From: a virus
Virus record (IMG/VR): IMGVR_UViG_3300036766_000686
Coordinates: 1-64,000 of that record
Length of the DNA stretch: 64,000 bases
Reading direction: 5' to 3' (one strand)
A model generated the notes under the pieces. The model did not search any database and was not told where the DNA came from. It saw only the letters and a program-made list of their open reading frames with translations. Below are positions 5,367 to 43,840 of this stretch, piece by piece (position 1 is the first letter of the stretch; the number at the start of each line of letters is the position of its first letter). Made by a program: the position numbers and the translations under genes.

Positions 5367-6038
5367 TTATCGAAGGATCACGGCAACTTGAAAGGCGCCC
5401 CATAGTGAACCTTTTCGCGTCAAGAACCCGCGCCGCGCGAGTTCCCTTCCGATCTCCCTCAACGAACGTCCTTTATTCCTCAGTTCGATAGCGATCGCCT
5501 TAATGCGTTGCTCTCGTGTCTCGGGAACGAGCTTGCGGGACTTCGGGTCAATCGCGTACCCGTACCTCACATGCCCGCCCGTGTACTCTCCTTGCTCCCG
5601 CTTGTATCGAGCAACTCGCGCCGTGTTTTCGGAAATGTTCTCCCGTTGCCACTGCGCCACGCTGCCCAGAATGTTCAACACGAGCCTGCCTCCTGCTGTC
5701 CTCGTGTCGATCTGCTCCGCGACCGATAGCAGTTGCGCTCCTCCCTCTCCAAAGTATTCGTCTAGCAAGTCGCCCAAGTCCTTGACCGACCTCGTAAGAC
5801 GATCAAGCGCAGAAACTACGAGCGCCTGCGCTTCGCCTCGCTCCAGCACCATCAACGCCGCCTGCACCCCGTCCCGTTTCAACGTCTTAGCGCTCACGCC
5901 TTTGTCCTCAAGGATCATCACGAGTTCCAACCCGTACAGTTCCGCGTACCTCTTGATCCTATCGCGTTGAGCGTCAAGGCTCAGCCCCTTGTCGGCTTGA
6001 TCCTCGGTGCTTACCCTCACGTACCCTACCGCCTTCAT
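5367..6038 (-). CDS. Serine recombinase (resolvase/invertase catalytic domain plus short recombinase-type DNA-binding domain)
   Basis: MKAVGYVRVSTEDQ (catalytic Ser), D-x-GVSA, LDRLTRS, then GGHVRYGY...SLREIGREL...W. True start is likely ATG 6038 after GAGG. Confidence 0.92.
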   Translation of the reverse strand: MKAVGYVRVSTEDQADKGLSLDAQRDRIKRYAELYGLELVMILEDKGVSAKTLKRDGVQAALMVLERGEAQALVVSALDRLTRSVKDLGDLLDEYFGEGGAQLLSVAEQIDTRTAGGRLVLNILGSVAQWQRENISENTARVARYKREQGEYTGGHVRYGYAIDPKSRKLVPETREQRIKAIAIELRNKGRSLREIGRELARRGFLTRKGSLWGAFQVAVILR

Positions 6039-7170: not shown

Positions 7171-7542
7171 TCACGCGTCCACCCATCCTTTCTTGAACTT
7201 TTGCCAGCGCCCCTCGAACCATCGCGTGGCTTCTCGACACTTGGGACGGGGGATTTCAATGAGCACTACCTTGTAGGCGACCGTCTCGCTTCCGTTTCCC
7301 AGACAAGCGTCCGTCCACCCTTGCCGTTTGCTATGCACGCAATATGTCCCCGCCGTCTTGTAAATCGCTCCCGAGTCTAAGTTGATGAACTCGGGAAGCA
7401 GAGGGAGTCCGTCGAACCCGTACAGCTTCCACCAGTGCTCAATACGCTGTGGTTGAGTTTTCGAAGTGTAGGACGAGATTGCAAACAACGTCCCGTCCTC
7501 TACCTCAAGCCGATCGCTCTTGGCGTTCATGTTGGTCAACAT
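7171..7542 (-). CDS. Hypothetical protein
   Basis: ATG 7542 follows a GGAG RBS. Confidence 0.55.
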   Translation of the reverse strand: MLTNMNAKSDRLEVEDGTLFAISSYTSKTQPQRIEHWWKLYGFDGLPLLPEFINLDSGAIYKTAGTYCVHSKRQGWTDACLGNGSETVAYKVVLIEIPRPKCREATRWFEGRWQKFKKGWVDA

Positions 7543-7627
7543 TTTTTTCTCCCCGATAATCGAAGGTGAAAAAGCGCTTCCCCCGCGGCTCGCTACAAGC
7601 TCACGAGGGAAGCGCGATTTCATTTCC

Positions 7628-8827
7628 CTATTCGTTCACTAACCCCGCCTCTTTCAACCAATTGTCCCCGCCCAGCGCCTTCGTGACTTTGCGCGCCTCG
7701 GGGGTCGCCAGCCCATCAATCTTGCCCAGTAGTTTAGCAGGGCTCCAAACGATCCCAGGGCTGTTCGCGTTCGTCACGTTGTACAGCAGTTCCCACAGCT
7801 TCCGCGCCCACGCGCGTTTGACCTTCGCATCCTTCTCCGATGCGATACACGACACACAAGCGGCCAACACAGCCTGCGTCCGATCAAGTCGCGTGGAGTT
7901 GTGTTCGAACGTCACCTTCCCGTCCAACAGTTCGTAGGGGTTGGGCAAGTCTTGCGCCTCAAGCCACGCAAAGAATTCTCCCGCCATCCCGTCTCCCACG
8001 AACGAAGCAAAAAAAGCATATTGCTCCGTTTCGCTCAGTTCGTGAATGATAGACGATGCCAACGCCCGAGTCGCCATTTCAATCGAGCGCCGAGACGACC
8101 AAGCCCTTGACGCTTGCGGGTCATCGGCTTTGGGTTGCTTGTGCAGGAACTCGGGGCGGGCGCGAAGGAACCCAAGCACCTTCCCCTTGGCTTTCGTAAA
8201 CTCCTCATTCCAGAGCAACAGAACACGAGCTTCCTCAGCGTTCGCGTCCTTTACGGACACAACACGCTCCGCGAACGCGTCCACAGAGTTGAGATAGTCC
8301 GCGTATTCGTCAAGCCCGCCTGCATCGAACTCCAGATGCCCAAGTCTGTTCGCTTGCGCCATCGACAGTTCGTACCCCGCCGCCGCCTCAGCGGGGGGAT
8401 TATAGATCGCCATCACGCGAACGTTGGGTCCGAACTGGTGCGTACCAATGCGCTTGTCGAGCGAGATGCCCAACAACGCGGGCTGGAGGGCGGGGGAAGC
8501 AGTCGTAAGTTCCTCGAGCACCACGACGCCCCGCCGCCCCTTTGCGAACTTATCGACCCAGTCGGGAGCGGGGTAGGCAAGCCTGCACTTGTCTCCCTCG
8601 CCCACCGGAACGGGGACAACGCCGAACGCTCCCTCCCCACGTTCACCCGGCGATAAAACCTCACTCTCGAATCCCCACTCCTTCGCCGCTTGCACCACCT
8701 GTGCCGACTTGCTCACTCCCGGCGACCCTACCAGCGCCAGCGTCAATCCCCACCCGCGGGTTGTAGGGGTGAACCAAGATGCTTTAATGATATTTTTCAT
8801 TGACCCAGATTTTTCAGATTTACTCAT
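7628..8827 (-). CDS. MoxR-like AAA+ ATPase
   Basis: Walker A GSPGVSKS, Walker B VVVLEEL, sensor NPP, ANR arginine finger, SRRS. Start is likely ATG 8827 (AGGAG RBS). Adjacent to a vWA gene. Confidence 0.85.
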   Translation of the reverse strand: MSKSEKSGSMKNIIKASWFTPTTRGWGLTLALVGSPGVSKSAQVVQAAKEWGFESEVLSPGERGEGAFGVVPVPVGEGDKCRLAYPAPDWVDKFAKGRRGVVVLEELTTASPALQPALLGISLDKRIGTHQFGPNVRVMAIYNPPAEAAAGYELSMAQANRLGHLEFDAGGLDEYADYLNSVDAFAERVVSVKDANAEEARVLLLWNEEFTKAKGKVLGFLRARPEFLHKQPKADDPQASRAWSSRRSIEMATRALASSIIHELSETEQYAFFASFVGDGMAGEFFAWLEAQDLPNPYELLDGKVTFEHNSTRLDRTQAVLAACVSCIASEKDAKVKRAWARKLWELLYNVTNANSPGIVWSPAKLLGKIDGLATPEARKVTKALGGDNWLKEAGLVNE

Positions 8828-12074: not shown

Positions 12075-12896
12075 GAAAATAACACAACTATTTTCACGCT
12101 TGTAAGTCCCCGCTTTCCCTCACTATTTCGCGCCTTTTTGCGAGCACCGTCACAGAATAACGATAATTACCCGAATCCCCACGAAATCCGCACCTTTTAT
12201 GCCCACTCTCCCCCCTCCTCACACCCACCCCCAGCTTCAATACGTCGTTTAGTCTCGCTCACTCACCCCACTACACCCATAAATCCCCCCTCTTTTCTCC
12301 TCTCTCATGCAAATTTTCAATTTTTTTATCGCTCTCCCCCCGCTCTCTCACCCCATCCCGCTCCCCTGCCCATCACTTTTTCCCTCGCCCACGTCACGTC
12401 GTAAATCGCGTGGAGGACAGTCAGTGCATAAAAACAAAGTGAAAAACTACAATATCCTACACTGCCCCCTATCGTCATTCCGTCAACGCGCGAACGCTCG
12501 TTGACGCGCAATTGGTCGGGATATTGCGAGAAAAATCGCTACTTTTCAATGTTCAAGTGATTATTTCGAAGCTCAGCAAGTCGAGACAAGTACAGCAATC
12601 AAGGGACTGGAGGGAAACCACGAGAATCCTTCCGTGGTCCTGCGGGAGGTGAGCGCCCTCCCCGCGTCGCCCTCCCTCGTGACGGTGTTTGTTGGTATTC
12701 GTTCGTTATTGATTACTGGGAACCCCTCCCTGTCGCCCGCTCTCGTGATAGCGCTTATTCTCTTTGTTCACGCTCTGCTTGATTCCAGTGCATACCCTTC
12801 TTGTGTCGCTCTCTCTCGTGAAGGTGTTTGTTTGTATTCGTTCGATTGATGTGGGTATACTTACGTTATCGCTATATTTGGATGGTGGGGGGGATA

Positions 12897-39807: not shown

Positions 39808-41247
39808 TTACCCGTCCACCACGCTCACCTTGAACGCTCGTTCTTTTCGATACACGCCCATCCTACTCCTCGAGTGCTCCGCGAAATAGGGATGGGTTAA
39901 ATCAACGAAATCCACAATAAAAGCACGCTGCTTCCCTGCGTGAGGAGTCAAGCATCGTAACCTTTGGTAAGTCCTCTTGATATCTGACCCGCCTTCTGCA
40001 ATCACCACCGCGTCAATCTCGGGAATGTCCACTCCCTCGTCGAAAATCGTCCCAACTAACACGAGTATATCCCCATTCTTGAATCGTGATACCTCACGTT
40101 CCCGGTCCTCGGTCTTGGTTTCGCCGGTCAAACAAGCGTACCGAACTCCTAACTTGTCGAGACGATCGCACAACTCCACAACTTGTTCCAGCCTGCTCGA
40201 TATCACAACAACGCGCAGCCCTTCCTTTGACATACGGAAAGCCTCTGCGGCTATCTTGTCGTTTCGGTAATCGTTGAGGATGATTGCGTCCTTGTGAAGT
40301 TTCTGGGACCAACGACGGCGCCCAAGGTCGGGCTTCCGAATGACGTGCAAAGATACCTCGGGGCGGACCAAATAGTTTTGATCGATCAAGTCGCTCATAG
40401 GAACATCGATCAAGATGTCCCCGGTACAAGCGTGAAGCCAGATCACGCCAAGTTCCGTTTCGCGTTCGTTGTCGAAAAACACAGTTGCCGAAAGCCCGAG
40501 TTTGTAAGGAGCGTCGGAATCGAGTAGAGCCTGCCTCCACGTTTCACTTTTCAAGTGGTGAATCTCGTCCGCTATCACGAGGTCGGTTCGTTGCAGGAGT
40601 TCAAAGTACTTTTCAAACGTTCGCCCACGGGCCGAGGACAGGGTTTGAAACGACGCCACGTTAATGTCCCGCTCGTTCCATTCCCCATCTCCCATTACGC
40701 CAACGTCAACCTTCAACGCTTTTTCCAGCGCTTGTCGAGTTTGATGGAGCAGGAAAGTTGCGGGGACGAGAAATAGAGTCCTCACGCCCAGCCGGGCAAT
40801 GATTGCGGCAGCGGTGCGGGTCTTGCCCGCCCGAGGAGGCATCTTGACGATGCCCCTCCCGATCGTTCCCAAAGCCCCCTGCGGTGTCGTGGCGCACGTA
40901 AGCGCCTCGCACTGATAGGGTCGGAGCCCGTCAACGGGCGCGAGACGAAGGAAGGACGCGGGAAAGCGCCGACAGTCCTCGAAATCAAACTCCGTGCCTT
41001 GCTCTCTCAGCGTTGCCATGACGTCGTTAGCCATGCCAGCGGGGAACCTGAGACTGCCATCAGGTAACGCCTTTGCAAGTCTCACCCTACCGTCCCACGT
41101 GTGCGCAACAAAGCGAGGAGAGAAACGCCGCCCCGCCATCAAGTAGGAAGTCCTTTGGGAGATTGCCTTGAGGACTGCCGTGGGGGCTCCGTACAACCTC
41201 CCGTGTCGATTATCTAAGGTCAGCCTCACTCCTACATTATCGCACAA
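39808..41247 (-). CDS. Superfamily 2 helicase (UvsW/ResIII-like)
   Basis: LRPYQ, PPRAGKT, DEIHH, GLSAT, FDEGVDIP, and QRLRCL. Confidence 0.92.
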   Translation of the reverse strand: MCDNVGVRLTLDNRHGRLYGAPTAVLKAISQRTSYLMAGRRFSPRFVAHTWDGRVRLAKALPDGSLRFPAGMANDVMATLREQGTEFDFEDCRRFPASFLRLAPVDGLRPYQCEALTCATTPQGALGTIGRGIVKMPPRAGKTRTAAAIIARLGVRTLFLVPATFLLHQTRQALEKALKVDVGVMGDGEWNERDINVASFQTLSSARGRTFEKYFELLQRTDLVIADEIHHLKSETWRQALLDSDAPYKLGLSATVFFDNERETELGVIWLHACTGDILIDVPMSDLIDQNYLVRPEVSLHVIRKPDLGRRRWSQKLHKDAIILNDYRNDKIAAEAFRMSKEGLRVVVISSRLEQVVELCDRLDKLGVRYACLTGETKTEDREREVSRFKNGDILVLVGTIFDEGVDIPEIDAVVIAEGGSDIKRTYQRLRCLTPHAGKQRAFIVDFVDLTHPYFAEHSRSRMGVYRKERAFKVSVVDG

Positions 41248-41376
41248 GGCGGGGGCGGGGTAAATGAGAAAAGCGCCTCACCCCCCCCCCGCCTCCCCAG
41301 AGTTTCCAGAAGGCGTTTTGTTGTCGGGGGCACAGAATCGTAGCTCCCCGGAGGTGAAAGTCGGAAATAGAGGGTG

Positions 41377-41853
41377 CTATGGCGGGGCGTTTAGGGTGCG
41401 CGAGCCCAACCAAGTCACCGTTACGACCTCGTCCAACTGCTTTGCCGTTTTTCTCAATTCTTCGAGCGCTCGGTCAATACGTTTCGGGTCTGCGGACTCG
41501 ACCGCGTCTTGAGCATCCAGCCGGGCCTTGTCGAGTGCCAGCCACGCATCATTGAGCGTTGCACAGTCTGCCCGCAGTTTGCGCAACGTCACGTCCGCGT
41601 CCGCGTCCTTGTCCACTACCCCCCTCGCCTGCAGCTCCCGCTCCCTCACGTCACACGCCGCCCGCGTTGCCTCAATCGACGGGACGAGGACTGTCTGGAT
41701 TACGTGCAAGAGGGAATGGATTGTGGAGATAGAGGATGCAAACTGAGAGGGCGAGCAAGCCGCCAAAAGCCCCACGGCAAGGAAAGGTATGGCAAGCCGG
41801 GCGATCAAGCACTCGAACAGACTGGTCAGGATTTTTCTTGCTTTGTTTTGCAT
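41377..41853 (-). CDS. Lipoprotein (possible spanin component)
   Basis: Hydrophobic stretch ending LLAAC (lipobox), helical body, located in the lysis region. Confidence 0.6.
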   Translation of the reverse strand: MQNKARKILTSLFECLIARLAIPFLAVGLLAACSPSQFASSISTIHSLLHVIQTVLVPSIEATRAACDVRERELQARGVVDKDADADVTLRKLRADCATLNDAWLALDKARLDAQDAVESADPKRIDRALEELRKTAKQLDEVVTVTWLGSRTLNAPP

Positions 41854-41880
41854 CCTCGTCCTCCTCGGTTTTCTTACACG

Positions 41881-41917
41881 CGGTAGCGGGTGCAGGAATC
41901 GAACCTGCCATCCTCAT
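41881..41917 (-). pseudogene. Orphan tRNA 3' half (T-arm plus acceptor strand)
   Basis: GCAGG-TTCGATT-CCTGC-ACCCGCT-A. Confidence 0.75.
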
Positions 41918-42594
41918 GAAGTTGCAGGGAGAGAAATCGAATCTCTAACCTCGTGGGTATGAGCCACGCGCGCTGCCTTTGCGCCACCCTGCACAAGTTT
42001 TTCCAACTCAATTAATCCATGATCTAGTTCCCAATGATGATTAGGACACAAAGTAACCAGATTTTCAATGGCATTCACAGCCTCAATTTTTGTTGCCCCG
42101 GAAAATTTGGCGATAGCGCGAACATGACAAATTTCTACGTGCCGATCGTACCCACAGACGAAGCACACACGCTGCCGTTTCGATCCTAAATAAATATGTC
42201 TTGCGTGGTTTTGAATGGAGGAACGCGAGGACTGATAACCTTTGCAACGATCACGATGCTCTTCCAACTTATACCCCTTTATTTTTTCACGTTGATGGCA
42301 ATCTTTGCAGGCTCGCAGCCTCAACCCTTCTGGAATAATTTTCCCGCAGCGTTTGCATTTACGAGGAGATTTATCGCGCTTGCGTTCTTTATTGGTCGTT
42401 ATCGCCGCGCAGGATCTTGAACAGTATTTCCGCTTACGCGTGTCAGCTATTTTACTTTTACCTTTTACCGAAATAGTTTTGCCGCAATTTTGGCATATCC
42501 GGGGAGAAGAATAATAGCGACTTAAAGCGGCTTGCCGACTTATTATCGCTGTCGCCCGTCCACCAAAACTTTGAGGACTAATTGGATCGTTCAT
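41914..42594 (-). CDS. HNH homing endonuclease with N-terminal zinc ribbons
   Basis: CQNCG...YCSRSC, CKRCG...CKDC, then CFVCGY...EICHV...NAIENLVTLCPNHHWELD. AT-rich relative to its flanks. Confidence 0.88.
   Translation of the reverse strand: MNDPISPQSFGGRATAIISRQAALSRYYSSPRICQNCGKTISVKGKSKIADTRKRKYCSRSCAAITTNKERKRDKSPRKCKRCGKIIPEGLRLRACKDCHQREKIKGYKLEEHRDRCKGYQSSRSSIQNHARHIYLGSKRQRVCFVCGYDRHVEICHVRAIAKFSGATKIEAVNAIENLVTLCPNHHWELDHGLIELEKLVQGGAKAARVAHTHEVRDSISLPATS
41922..41993 (-). tRNA. tRNA with CAT anticodon (Met, or Ile2)
   Basis: Acceptor TGCAGGG/CCCTGCA, D stem GCGC/GCGC, anticodon arm CGTGG-CTCATAC-CCACG, T arm AGAGA-TTCGATT-TCTCT. No encoded CCA. Confidence 0.88.
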
Positions 42595-42634
42595 CCTCTC
42601 AGTTTAGCGGGTAAGCGTTACGAAATCAACAAAC

Positions 42635-42664
42635 CTATGCGTGCCTCCAGTACACCTACCCGCA
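42635..42664 (-). pseudogene. Orphan tRNA 5' half (acceptor strand plus D arm)
   Basis: TGCGGGT-AG-GTGT-ACTGGAG-GCAC-G-CATAG. TGCGGGT pairs with ACCCGCT of the 41881-41917 half except at 1:72. Confidence 0.55.
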
Positions 42665-42668
42665 ACAA

Positions 42669-43220
42669 CTACCCTCCACACGTTCGAGTGAAGCAAGGCT
42701 CCATGTTCTGCCTCAACCTCCACTCGTTTATTCTCAATATGCGATCGTATTCGGATGAGCGAGTCACGGCGTCCCGAATCGGATCCGTCACCCGGTGAGC
42801 CTCGCGGCTCGCTCGATCCTGAATTATGTCCATTCGAATTTGCTGTACCGAATCCTTAATTTCGGTAACGGCTTTTTCGTGAACGTCGAGGCGCTTCTTA
42901 ATTTCGACGTGTTCCTGAGTATTCGTGTCCTTCAACGTCTTGACCTCTTGTGGTTCGGCACCTTCGGGGAACTGAAACGCCCCGCCCGCCGCCTGCAGTA
43001 ACGCCGCTCCCCACCCGCCACCGCCCACCAATACGATAATCCCCGCAACGACGATCCACTTGATCCTTACGGTCAGCGTTGACGGGCCTATGGAGATTGG
43101 CGGATCAGTATTTCCCATGTATACCATCTTACCAAGTTTGTAGGTTTCTGTCACCTTCAAACCCCCGTCGCCCACTGAAAGTGCATGGGGTCGGGGTTGC
43201 TGTGAAACTTCGCGCCCCAC
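42669..43220 (-). CDS. Membrane-anchored coiled-coil protein (holin/spanin-like; true start probably ~43150)
   Basis: TM segment WIVVAGIIVLVGGGGWGAALL plus coiled coil, directly after the endolysin. Confidence 0.6.
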   Translation of the reverse strand: MGREVSQQPRPHALSVGDGGLKVTETYKLGKMVYMGNTDPPISIGPSTLTVRIKWIVVAGIIVLVGGGGWGAALLQAAGGAFQFPEGAEPQEVKTLKDTNTQEHVEIKKRLDVHEKAVTEIKDSVQQIRMDIIQDRASREAHRVTDPIRDAVTRSSEYDRILRINEWRLRQNMEPCFTRTCGG

Positions 43221-43840
43221 GTAAATCCAGCCGCCTCGAAAATCTGCACCACACCCGGGTGAATCCTGCTCGGGTGCCCCGGAGGATTTTCGCTCCAGTT
43301 TACATCACACGCGATTGCCCACGAGTGCAGGGAAAGAGGTTTGCTCGGGTCGTTCATCTTGTGCCGCGGCGCCCACACCGCGAACTGTCGGACCTCGCTC
43401 GACAGCCCTTGCCTTTGCACCTGTTCGAACACTTCGAAAAATACGTCCGCGAGTTTCTTGTGGACGATTTCCTTGCCGACAACAGGGAGGAAAATAGCGA
43501 CCGTGTTGTCCTCACTCCACCCGTTTGTGATCTTGATCCTCCCACCCTCCGCGTTCACGTATTGAATTTGCCCAAACACGCGCGCCACGTTGTCGAGCCC
43601 ATGAGGAATCTCGACCACAGAGGCGATTGGATGCGGGACGGCAACATCTCGCGCAATCGCGCCCAACGTCACCTCGTCCACTGTCCCTGTAACAAACCTT
43701 TGCCGCTGGTACTCTCGTACCGCGCTCTCCGTGATGCGTCCATACTCTCGATCCATGCGCCCGTGATAGTACCCGAGCTTGCCCAAGTCCTCTTGTAACT
43801 TGCCGACCTCCGGCCCTTTGTCTCCAATGTGAAGTTCCAT
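43157..43840 (-). CDS. Endolysin: peptidoglycan-binding domain plus M15 peptidase
   Basis: GDKGPEVGKLQEDLGKLGY...YGRITESAVREYQ, then R...SLHSWAIACD...WG...DPMHFQ. Confidence 0.9.
   Translation of the reverse strand: MELHIGDKGPEVGKLQEDLGKLGYYHGRMDREYGRITESAVREYQRQRFVTGTVDEVTLGAIARDVAVPHPIASVVEIPHGLDNVARVFGQIQYVNAEGGRIKITNGWSEDNTVAIFLPVVGKEIVHKKLADVFFEVFEQVQRQGLSSEVRQFAVWAPRHKMNDPSKPLSLHSWAIACDVNWSENPPGHPSRIHPGVVQIFEAAGFTWGAKFHSNPDPMHFQWATGV

Follow-up and report, generated by a model that had tools for sequence, protein, structure and literature searches.

In the first 64,000 nucleotides (the window) of the IMG/VR virus record IMGVR_UViG_3300036766_000686, which is 91.7 kb long and has an estimated completeness of 91%, a gene coding for an endonuclease of the HNH type is found between two pieces of a tRNA gene, here called the outer tRNA, and its open reading frame (ORF) runs into a second and complete tRNA gene with the anticodon CAT, here called the inner tRNA. 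All features of this cassette locus reside on the minus strand, flanked by two small genes downstream of an M15-type endolysin, and in the direction of transcription their order is outer tRNA 5' piece, leader, HNH ORF, inner tRNA(CAT) and outer tRNA 3' piece, as follows:

42635..42664, minus strand: 5' remnant of the outer tRNA, consisting of TGCGGGT, AG, a 4-bp D stem (GTGT, a loop with GG, and GCAC or ACGC), followed perhaps by the anticodon stem's 5' strand
42595..42634, minus strand: cassette leader that separates the HNH start from the 5' remnant and holds the 3' arm of a hairpin and GAGAGG right before the ATG
41914..42594, minus strand: HNH endonuclease ORF of 226 amino acids (aa) with CxxC zinc-ribbon repeats at the N-terminus and an HNH_2 domain at the C-terminus; its stop codon TGA (41914-41916) is located inside the outer 3' remnant
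41922..41993, minus strand: inner tRNA(CAT), complete and of the elongator type (Rfam 62.7 bits, cut-off 29; ARAGORN tRNA-Met(cat) at 41921-41993)
41882..41919, minus strand: 3' remnant of the outer tRNA, consisting of the possible 3' strand of the anticodon stem (TCATG), a variable region AGGATG, the T arm GCAGG-TTCGATT-CCTGC, the acceptor strand ACCCGCT, A73 and CC

The insert between the two outer remnants thus comprises positions 41920-42634, i.e., 715 nt or about 0.71 kb, of which the HNH ORF takes up all except the 40-nt leader, and the 3' remnant begins 2 nt after the inner tRNA. An earlier interpretation made from the letters of this DNA without database searches, in the following called the sequence-only reading, had described two tRNA pieces with matching acceptor strands and a mismatch at 1:72 that flank an AT-rich HNH gene, as well as a complete tRNA(CAT) within the coding tail of that gene, and all of these elements are indeed present on the minus strand. 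In a search of positions 41300-43300 with E values of up to 10, tRNA was the sole Rfam family matched, and no group I intron was found.

The HNH gene and its family

The HNH ORF matches the Pfam family HNH_2 (PF13391) over residues 144-195 (28.6 bits, cut-off 21), and apart from this domain it has zinc-ribbon-like matches only, with no GIY-YIG domain as present in the homing endonuclease SegB. The residues C144, C147, H152, H157, N174, N178, C183 and H187 are all kept and are invariant across the 13 aligned homologues. The part of the gene that precedes the tRNA has a G + C content of 44%, compared to 53% for the window. Having a start codon of its own after GAGAGG and showing no sign of being carried by an intron or intein, it is a free-standing gene.

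The ORF continues without a stop codon through all 72 bases of the inner tRNA, which corresponds to codons 201-224, and ends with the TGA six bases into the outer 3' piece, so that its last 26 codons read across the tRNA. In an alignment with 12 homologues, all of the others end 3-15 residues past the motif WELDHG, and the last approximately 25 residues of the window protein are without counterpart. Since a stretch of 24 codons is expected to be free of stops by chance in about one of three cases, and since the tail has no counterpart in the homologues, the position of a tRNA inside a coding tail needs no special explanation, and judging from these comparisons the tail looks like a chance read-through, i.e., an accident of tight packing.

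An identical HNH protein is encoded on a second contig of 14.7 kb. Homologues of the HNH protein at E values below 0.001 number 31, and wherever their genomic context could be read it was a tRNA array. Six IMG/VR loci with a homologue belong to phages of 93-340 kb with tRNA arrays, jumbo-phage arrays among them. In the Streptomyces phage TomSawyer the homologue is annotated as an HNH endonuclease and a tRNA-Ile begins 7 nt past its stop codon, in the faecal phage contig MT836666.1 the next tRNA follows 11 nt past the stop, and a FelixO1-like Erwinia phage harbours a decayed copy. At other loci the end of the homologous ORF overlaps a tRNA, either on the opposite strand (L002/L003, 3449-3477, 29 nt; L004, 3452-3492, 41 nt; L005, 3210-3222, 13 nt) or on the same strand (L007, 3224-3240, 17 nt). 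As far as these loci allow one to judge, tight packing against a tRNA is the rule for this HNH family, and there is no apparent preference for a particular tRNA isotype. With respect to the leaders of the homologous cassettes, a search for a conserved motif revealed nothing robust.

Several side observations concern these homologous loci. The antisense overlap with tRNA 3' ends at four loci yields HNH tails such as ...PAGIEPA, which is an antisense T arm. Just upstream of the HNH gene of L007, a tRNA of 114 nt (2404-2517; Rfam 56.5 bits over the full model) has an AT-rich insert of about 40 nt in its anticodon loop and is called by ARAGORN as an intron-containing tRNA-Ile, and the same array contains several more orphan T-arm motifs. 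In L128, from another phage, a tRNA(CAT) at 12123-12194 having the anticodon arm of the inner tRNA is followed about 110 nt downstream by a distant relative of the HNH gene (12308-12814; 25% identity, E value 1e-9).

The inner and the outer tRNA

According to both ARAGORN and Rfam, the inner tRNA(CAT) is the sole tRNA in the entire 91.7-kb record. Bacterial initiator tRNAs are marked by a mismatch at 1:72, an A11:U24 pair and three G-C pairs at 29-31:39-41. None of these three marks is found in the inner tRNA, in which U1 and A72 are paired, 11:24 is C:G, 29:41 is U-A and the anticodon stem reads CGTGG/CCACG. The outer tRNA cannot be typed in this way, and the reference to initiator tRNAs in the sequence-only reading is not supported. 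The anticodon arm of the inner tRNA recurs in 18 tRNA(CAT) genes on viral contigs, the nearest of which is 82% identical, and single tRNA(CAT) genes are a common cargo of phages.

For the outer tRNA, the more informative piece is the 3' remnant. When run in truncated mode on this remnant by itself, Rfam detects no more than the T arm (8.1 bits, E value 0.19), but a 20-mer reaching from its T loop to its acceptor strand is found exactly in 29 IMG/VR loci, 25 of which ARAGORN calls tRNA-Met(cat). Most of these loci belong to T5-like phages, where the deposited annotation is likewise tRNA-Met. The tRNA genes in question form a phage tRNA(CAU) family that starts with TGCGGGT or CGCGGGT and ends with ACCCGCT-A-CCA, resulting in a pyrimidine-U mismatch at 1:72. 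In two tRNA-Met genes of this family (L155 and L158) the ends, TGCGGGT...ACCCGCT-A-CCA, are identical to those of the outer remnants, and the tRNA-Met gene of the T5-like L131 shares the start TGCGGGT with the 5' remnant. Amongst the genomes in GTDB, two Actinomadura and one CPR bacterium have the 20-mer in a tRNA(CAT) gene, and it also occurs in a few other isotypes. The sequence-only reading had proposed to compare the 3' half with host tRNAs. The piece matches 27 nt at the 3' ends of Actinomadura tRNA-Met genes, and the same 20-mer is present in the 25 phage tRNA-Met(CAT) genes.

For the 5' remnant it has to be asked how often a similar sequence would be expected by chance. The hexamer GCGGGT occurs 92 times in the genome, and together with a D-arm-like follow-up it is found six times in 183 kb (both strands), corresponding to about 0.03 occurrences expected within the 800 nt upstream. 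On the basis of the shared 20-mer, the shared acceptor ends and this low chance figure, we conclude that both outer pieces most plausibly derive from one tRNA of the phage CAU family. While its acceptor ends and T arm are identical to those of 25 tRNA-Met(cat) genes, the anticodon itself is missing. After joining, the remnants provide the acceptor, D and T stems of a tRNA and not a complete cloverleaf, and since there is no usable anticodon arm the outer tRNA gene is dead.

In a scan of 3300 possible join points ARAGORN did report cloverleaves, but these turned out to be artefacts in which either the T arm of the inner tRNA served as a long variable arm or junction bases served as the loop. 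As the same permissiveness gave false hits at other loci, the join scan was dropped as a screen. Three matches of a 20-mer from the 5' remnant in metagenomes were likewise discarded, all of them being chance matches in coding DNA.

In four Desulfobacterales metagenome-assembled genomes (MAGs; L013, L017, L020 and L021) the 20-mer of the 3' remnant is located at the end of a tRNA-like element of about 70 nt which finishes with ...ACCCGCTCCA, is conserved in all four and is not called by ARAGORN. A single Planctomycetaceae MAG has two contigs (L009 and L024) with arrays of 24 and 37 tRNA genes within 4-5 kb, which are possibly phage-derived or of the L-array type.

A parallel cassette in MT836666.1

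The homologue in MT836666.1 (L111), an unannotated record of a faecal phage, is 36% identical to the window HNH protein over 80% of its length and is part of the following arrangement:

340-378: 5' half of a tRNA-Asp gene
400-951: HNH homologue
963-1035: complete tRNA-Asp(GTC)
1038-1073: 3' half of the tRNA-Asp gene

Here the 5' half extends through the anticodon loop (CTGTCAT) and the 3' half opens with the complementary stem strand TGTGA, so that joining position 378 to position 1038 restores a tRNA-Asp(gtc) of 74 nt in which every stem is perfect, including the 5-bp anticodon stem. The complete tRNA-Asp(GTC) is separated from the 3' half by 3 nt and differs in sequence from the outer one, the outer pair C6:G67 being replaced by G6:C67 in what is a compensatory change.

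The two cassettes therefore have in common a 5' half, an HNH gene, a whole tRNA with the same anticodon (putatively so in the window), a spacing of 2-3 nt and a 3' half, all on the same strand, as well as a repeat of 7 nt that is described below. Unlike in the window, the tRNA of MT836666.1 is of the Asp(GTC) isotype, both outer halves have remained intact and fit together perfectly at position 38/39, the HNH gene has its own stop codon 11 nt before the tRNA, and there is neither a second acceptor strand nor a hairpin. This is a second and unrelated phage with the same enzyme family, the same order and the same orientation, in which a whole tRNA of the same anticodon is located in a split tRNA gene, and by analogy it supports the idea of a split tRNA with a spare copy far better than does the window alone. 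A match to cr115_1 beside the cassette in MT836666.1 proved not to be an empty site.

Repeats and a hairpin at the cassette ends

Three further elements are located at the ends of the window cassette:

42607..42663, minus strand: imperfect 14-bp (12+2) hairpin in which the 5' remnant pairs with part of the leader, this part ending in a second ACCCGCTA; also called as an inverted repeat
42592..42598, minus strand: GAGGATG over the HNH start codon
41909..41915, minus strand: second GAGGATG, at the start of the 3' remnant

The second ACCCGCTA (42605-42612) lies in the leader and is followed by further complementary bases. The minimum free energy of the hairpin is -25.7 kcal/mol (z = -2.78), and two out of 200 shuffled sequences fold equally well. 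It might be read as the vestige of a substitute 3' end of the kind that fungal elements carry, as an internally deleted second copy of the outer tRNA or as a secondary adaptation, all of which are possible. A terminator was considered as well and rejected, as there is no U tract and the terminator scan did not call the hairpin.

The heptamer GAGGATG had been pointed out in the sequence-only reading as occurring near both ends of the insert, and it is present at both; at the same time it is the most common combination of a Shine-Dalgarno (SD) sequence and ATG in this phage, with 12 occurrences on this strand of the window. A parallel is provided by MT836666.1, where the 7-nt repeat CTGTGAA (398-404 and 1037-1043) likewise lies over the HNH start codon and over the start of the 3' half. 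That 7-nt repeats should be located at both sites in both cassettes by coincidence twice over is unlikely, and microhomology at the joint or a target-like operator are candidate explanations.

Origin of the cassette

Taken as a whole, we consider it probable that a free-standing HNH gene of the homing type, together with an intact and different tRNA(CAU), inserted into what was formerly a second tRNA(CAU) gene, and that the nuclease in this way replaces what it breaks. By analogy to homing endonucleases and to MT836666.1, the nuclease would cut outer-type tRNA genes that lack the HNH insert near the anticodon loop or stem, and recombinational repair would then copy the nuclease gene and its cargo tRNA into the break. 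The cargo tRNA, being different in sequence at the cut site, would compensate for the broken gene and might thus allow for an insertion at low cost without any splicing. As a possible consequence, processing of the inner tRNA by RNase P would remove the stop codon from the HNH message. The sequence-only reading had similarly proposed that the nuclease invaded a resident tRNA of the Met type, and the pieces of the CAU family, the association of the nuclease family with tRNA arrays and the cassette in MT836666.1 are all in favour of an invasion, whereas the word "resident" is not in line with 80 relatives of the UvsW-like helicase encoded downstream of the cassette, which have no tRNA at this place. 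Its cleavage-resistant substitute and its toxin-antidote-like homing are conjectures.

A more far-reaching version, which we put forward only tentatively and regard as somewhat more likely to be wrong than right, is that the HNH family as such spreads by break and replace, with whole cargo tRNAs of the same anticodon (CAU here, Asp(GUC) in MT836666.1) that have diverged at the cut site, and that in the window phage tRNA maturation would leave an HNH message without a stop codon and so limit the level of the nuclease.

A number of observations weigh against the insertion of a nuclease with a replacement tRNA. The anticodon arm of the outer tRNA is not recoverable, its best stem candidate (CATAG/TCATG, with four of five pairs) being no better than shuffled sequences, and ARAGORN, which had been suggested for both the region and the joined halves, calls the inner tRNA in the region but finds nothing on the natural join. 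Rfam, also in truncated mode, gives no tRNA match to the 5' remnant, and neither the extra ACCCGCTA nor the 14-bp hairpin is predicted by a simple insertion. The inner tRNA may be of the Met or of the lysidine-modified Ile (Ile2) type, and it is only a candidate replacement for the outer tRNA. Furthermore, the sequence-only reading had expected relatives without the HNH gene to contain an intact tRNA, and no close relative of this kind was found with the flanking proteins in IMG/VR, by blastn against phages or by exact-pattern scans of viral, genome and metagenome collections, nor was there a match to gapped patterns of the intact tRNA in viral and genome contigs. None of the 80 helicase relatives, which are 26-58% identical, has a tRNA beside the helicase, and the block as a whole is lacking in these distant relatives. 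Six of them keep the neighbourhood of endolysin and helicase, with small genes in between that are not alignable and no tRNA. By the criterion of the sequence-only reading, this speaks against a long residence of the outer tRNA. However, the distance to the helicase relatives is too large for a decision, and the split may have arisen at this locus or earlier, with the whole block then being imported in the split state. With the outer tRNA decayed and no empty site known, the case at the window locus is incomplete.

An alternative hypothesis that we regard as unlikely assumes that the HNH enzyme broke a small cluster of tRNA genes and that the repair entailed duplication and deletion, as with SegB in phage T6, leaving two decayed copies of the outer tRNA, a left one that was internally deleted but kept both acceptor strands and a right one without its 5' half, while the inner tRNA is a mere neighbour. 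Such a rearrangement scar would explain why the left piece carries both TGCGGGT and ACCCGCT-A, as a complete but internally deleted copy should, as well as the 7-nt repeat GAGGATG where the HNH gene and the 3' remnant begin, and it has a precedent in SegB, which cuts inside tRNA genes and drives the microhomology-joined amplification of a unit of tRNA and nuclease (PMC13096335). However, neither a T arm nor an anticodon arm can be convincingly recognised in the 25-29 nt that separate the D arm from ACCCGCTA, the homologous cassette in MT836666.1 is cleanly split and has no second acceptor strand, and a tandem repeat of the unit of tRNA and nuclease is not found in the phage genome. Even less probable, in our view, is that the 5' piece does not derive from a tRNA at all but is an ordinary hairpin following a gene, its initial GCGGGT being a coincidence, and that the 3' piece is a 5'-truncated second tRNA once located in tandem after the tRNA(CAT). 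The failure of Rfam to recognise the 5' piece, the position of the 14-bp fold directly after the stop codon of the upstream gene and the 92 occurrences of GCGGGT would fit such a scenario. It has to be set against the chance expectation of only about 0.03 in 800 nt for a GCGGGT that continues like a D arm, against the T that precedes GCGGGT and the TA that follows ACCCGC, both of which match the tRNA(CAU) family, against the lack of a U tract and of further copies in the genome, and against the parallel in MT836666.1.

The sequence-only reading had itself offered the alternative that the 3' piece is the core of an attP site, where integration would make use of a sequence copied from the 3' terminus of a host tRNA(CAU) gene, and although the 27-nt match to the 3' end of Actinomadura tRNA-Met genes and the presence of one serine recombinase in the phage are compatible with this, we consider it highly improbable. 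There is no match to the tyrosine integrase family PF00589 in the genome and no integrase beside the putative core, the only recombinase being a resolvase-type ORF of 284 aa at a distance of 36 kb (PF00239 match at 5586-6032). Moreover, tRNA-Met genes carried by phages typically have this 20-mer, there is a 5' piece that matches, and the fragment is located inside a block of lysis genes beside the HNH gene. A group I intron or the splicing of a split tRNA was rejected, given that Rfam detects no intron core (no RF00028 at E values of up to 10), that the outer tRNA has no anticodon loop and that there is no room in the insert.

Comparison with known systems

Of the systems known to combine homing endonucleases with tRNA genes or with substitute gene copies, three resemble the window cassette in part. 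A cyanobacterial tRNA-fMet gene harbours a group I intron with the homing endonuclease I-Ssp6803I, and there, too, a homing endonuclease gene resides in the anticodon region of a tRNA(CAU) gene. However, that intron splices and thereby restores the tRNA, whereas the window insert has no intron core in Rfam and is nearly filled by the ORF and the inner tRNA.

In fungal mitochondria, mobile endonuclease ORFs (mORFs) bring a foreign version of the host gene's 3' end with them on insertion, as in atp6 of Allomyces and in atp6, atp9, cox2 and nad3 of Glomus (PMC3630166). As in the favoured explanation for the window, an endonuclease ORF brings along a diverged substitute, and the native 3' part stays downstream as a remnant. 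The fungal elements differ in that they reside in organelle protein genes, code for LAGLIDADG or GIY-YIG enzymes and carry a partial gene fused in frame, while the substitute in the window would be a whole and separate tRNA gene.

SegB of the phages T4 and T6 is a free-standing GIY-YIG homing endonuclease of a tRNA gene cluster (PMC13096335, citing Brok-Volchanskaya 2008), and in T6 the breaks that it induces in tRNA genes are repaired via microhomology into amplified units of tRNA and nuclease (PMC13096335). Like the window enzyme it is a free-standing nuclease amongst phage tRNA genes; it cuts inside tRNA genes, moves and is amplified with an adjacent tRNA as a unit, leaves microhomology junctions and has no preference for a tRNA isotype. 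In contrast to the window enzyme, it is of the GIY-YIG and not of the HNH type and lies between intact tRNA genes, and a split tRNA with a spare of the same anticodon has not been described for it.

The persistence of homing endonucleases in essential genes is ascribed to self-splicing introns or inteins that hide them, or to a position next to their targets. If the proposed explanation is correct, a third way would be for the nuclease to bring along a diverged spare with the same anticodon, which would make it harmless inside an essential RNA gene without any splicing. This would also account for the hopping of single tRNA genes from one phage to another, unrelated one, for the orphan tRNA fragments found beside phage HNH genes and for the annotation of HNH genes as running into tRNAs. 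Given the recent finding that nucleases of the SegB type reshape phage tRNA loci under defence pressure, such cassettes may in addition matter for the gain of tRNAs by which phages counter tRNA-targeting defences. In full-text searches of a literature library, no description was found of a phage HNH enzyme that brings a whole tRNA of the same anticodon into a tRNA gene. Compared to the sequence-only reading, the placement of the outer gene in the phage tRNA(CAU) family, the link of this HNH family to tRNA arrays and the parallel cassette in MT836666.1 are new.

Gene neighbourhood and further observations

The genes surrounding the cassette are:

43157-43840, minus strand: M15-type endolysin, on the upstream side of the cassette
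42669..43220, minus strand: upstream neighbour, a membrane-type protein of 183 aa, with its stop codon 4 nt ahead of the 5' remnant
41377..41853, minus strand: downstream neighbour, a protein of 158 aa with a lipoprotein-like N-terminus, starting 28 nt past the 3' remnant
39808-41247: UvsW-like helicase, further downstream of the cassette

Elsewhere in the phage genome neither paralogues of the HNH gene nor copies of the hairpin were found. A 17-nt inverted repeat (82% complementary) that pairs the end of the 3' remnant (41873-41889) with the interior of the HNH ORF (42430-42446) is probably due to chance.

Many homologues of the helicase (P0042, P0046, P0058, P0061, P0070 and others) are about 800 aa long and contain Hint/intein domains, the copy in the window being without an intein, so that this group of phages is rich in mobile elements. 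Finally, in a helicase-related phage (L065) an ORF of 206 aa (7345-7965) is located directly upstream of the helicase, at the position of the cassette region in the window, and contains CxxC...YCSxxCS zinc-ribbon motifs resembling the N-terminus of the cassette HNH family.

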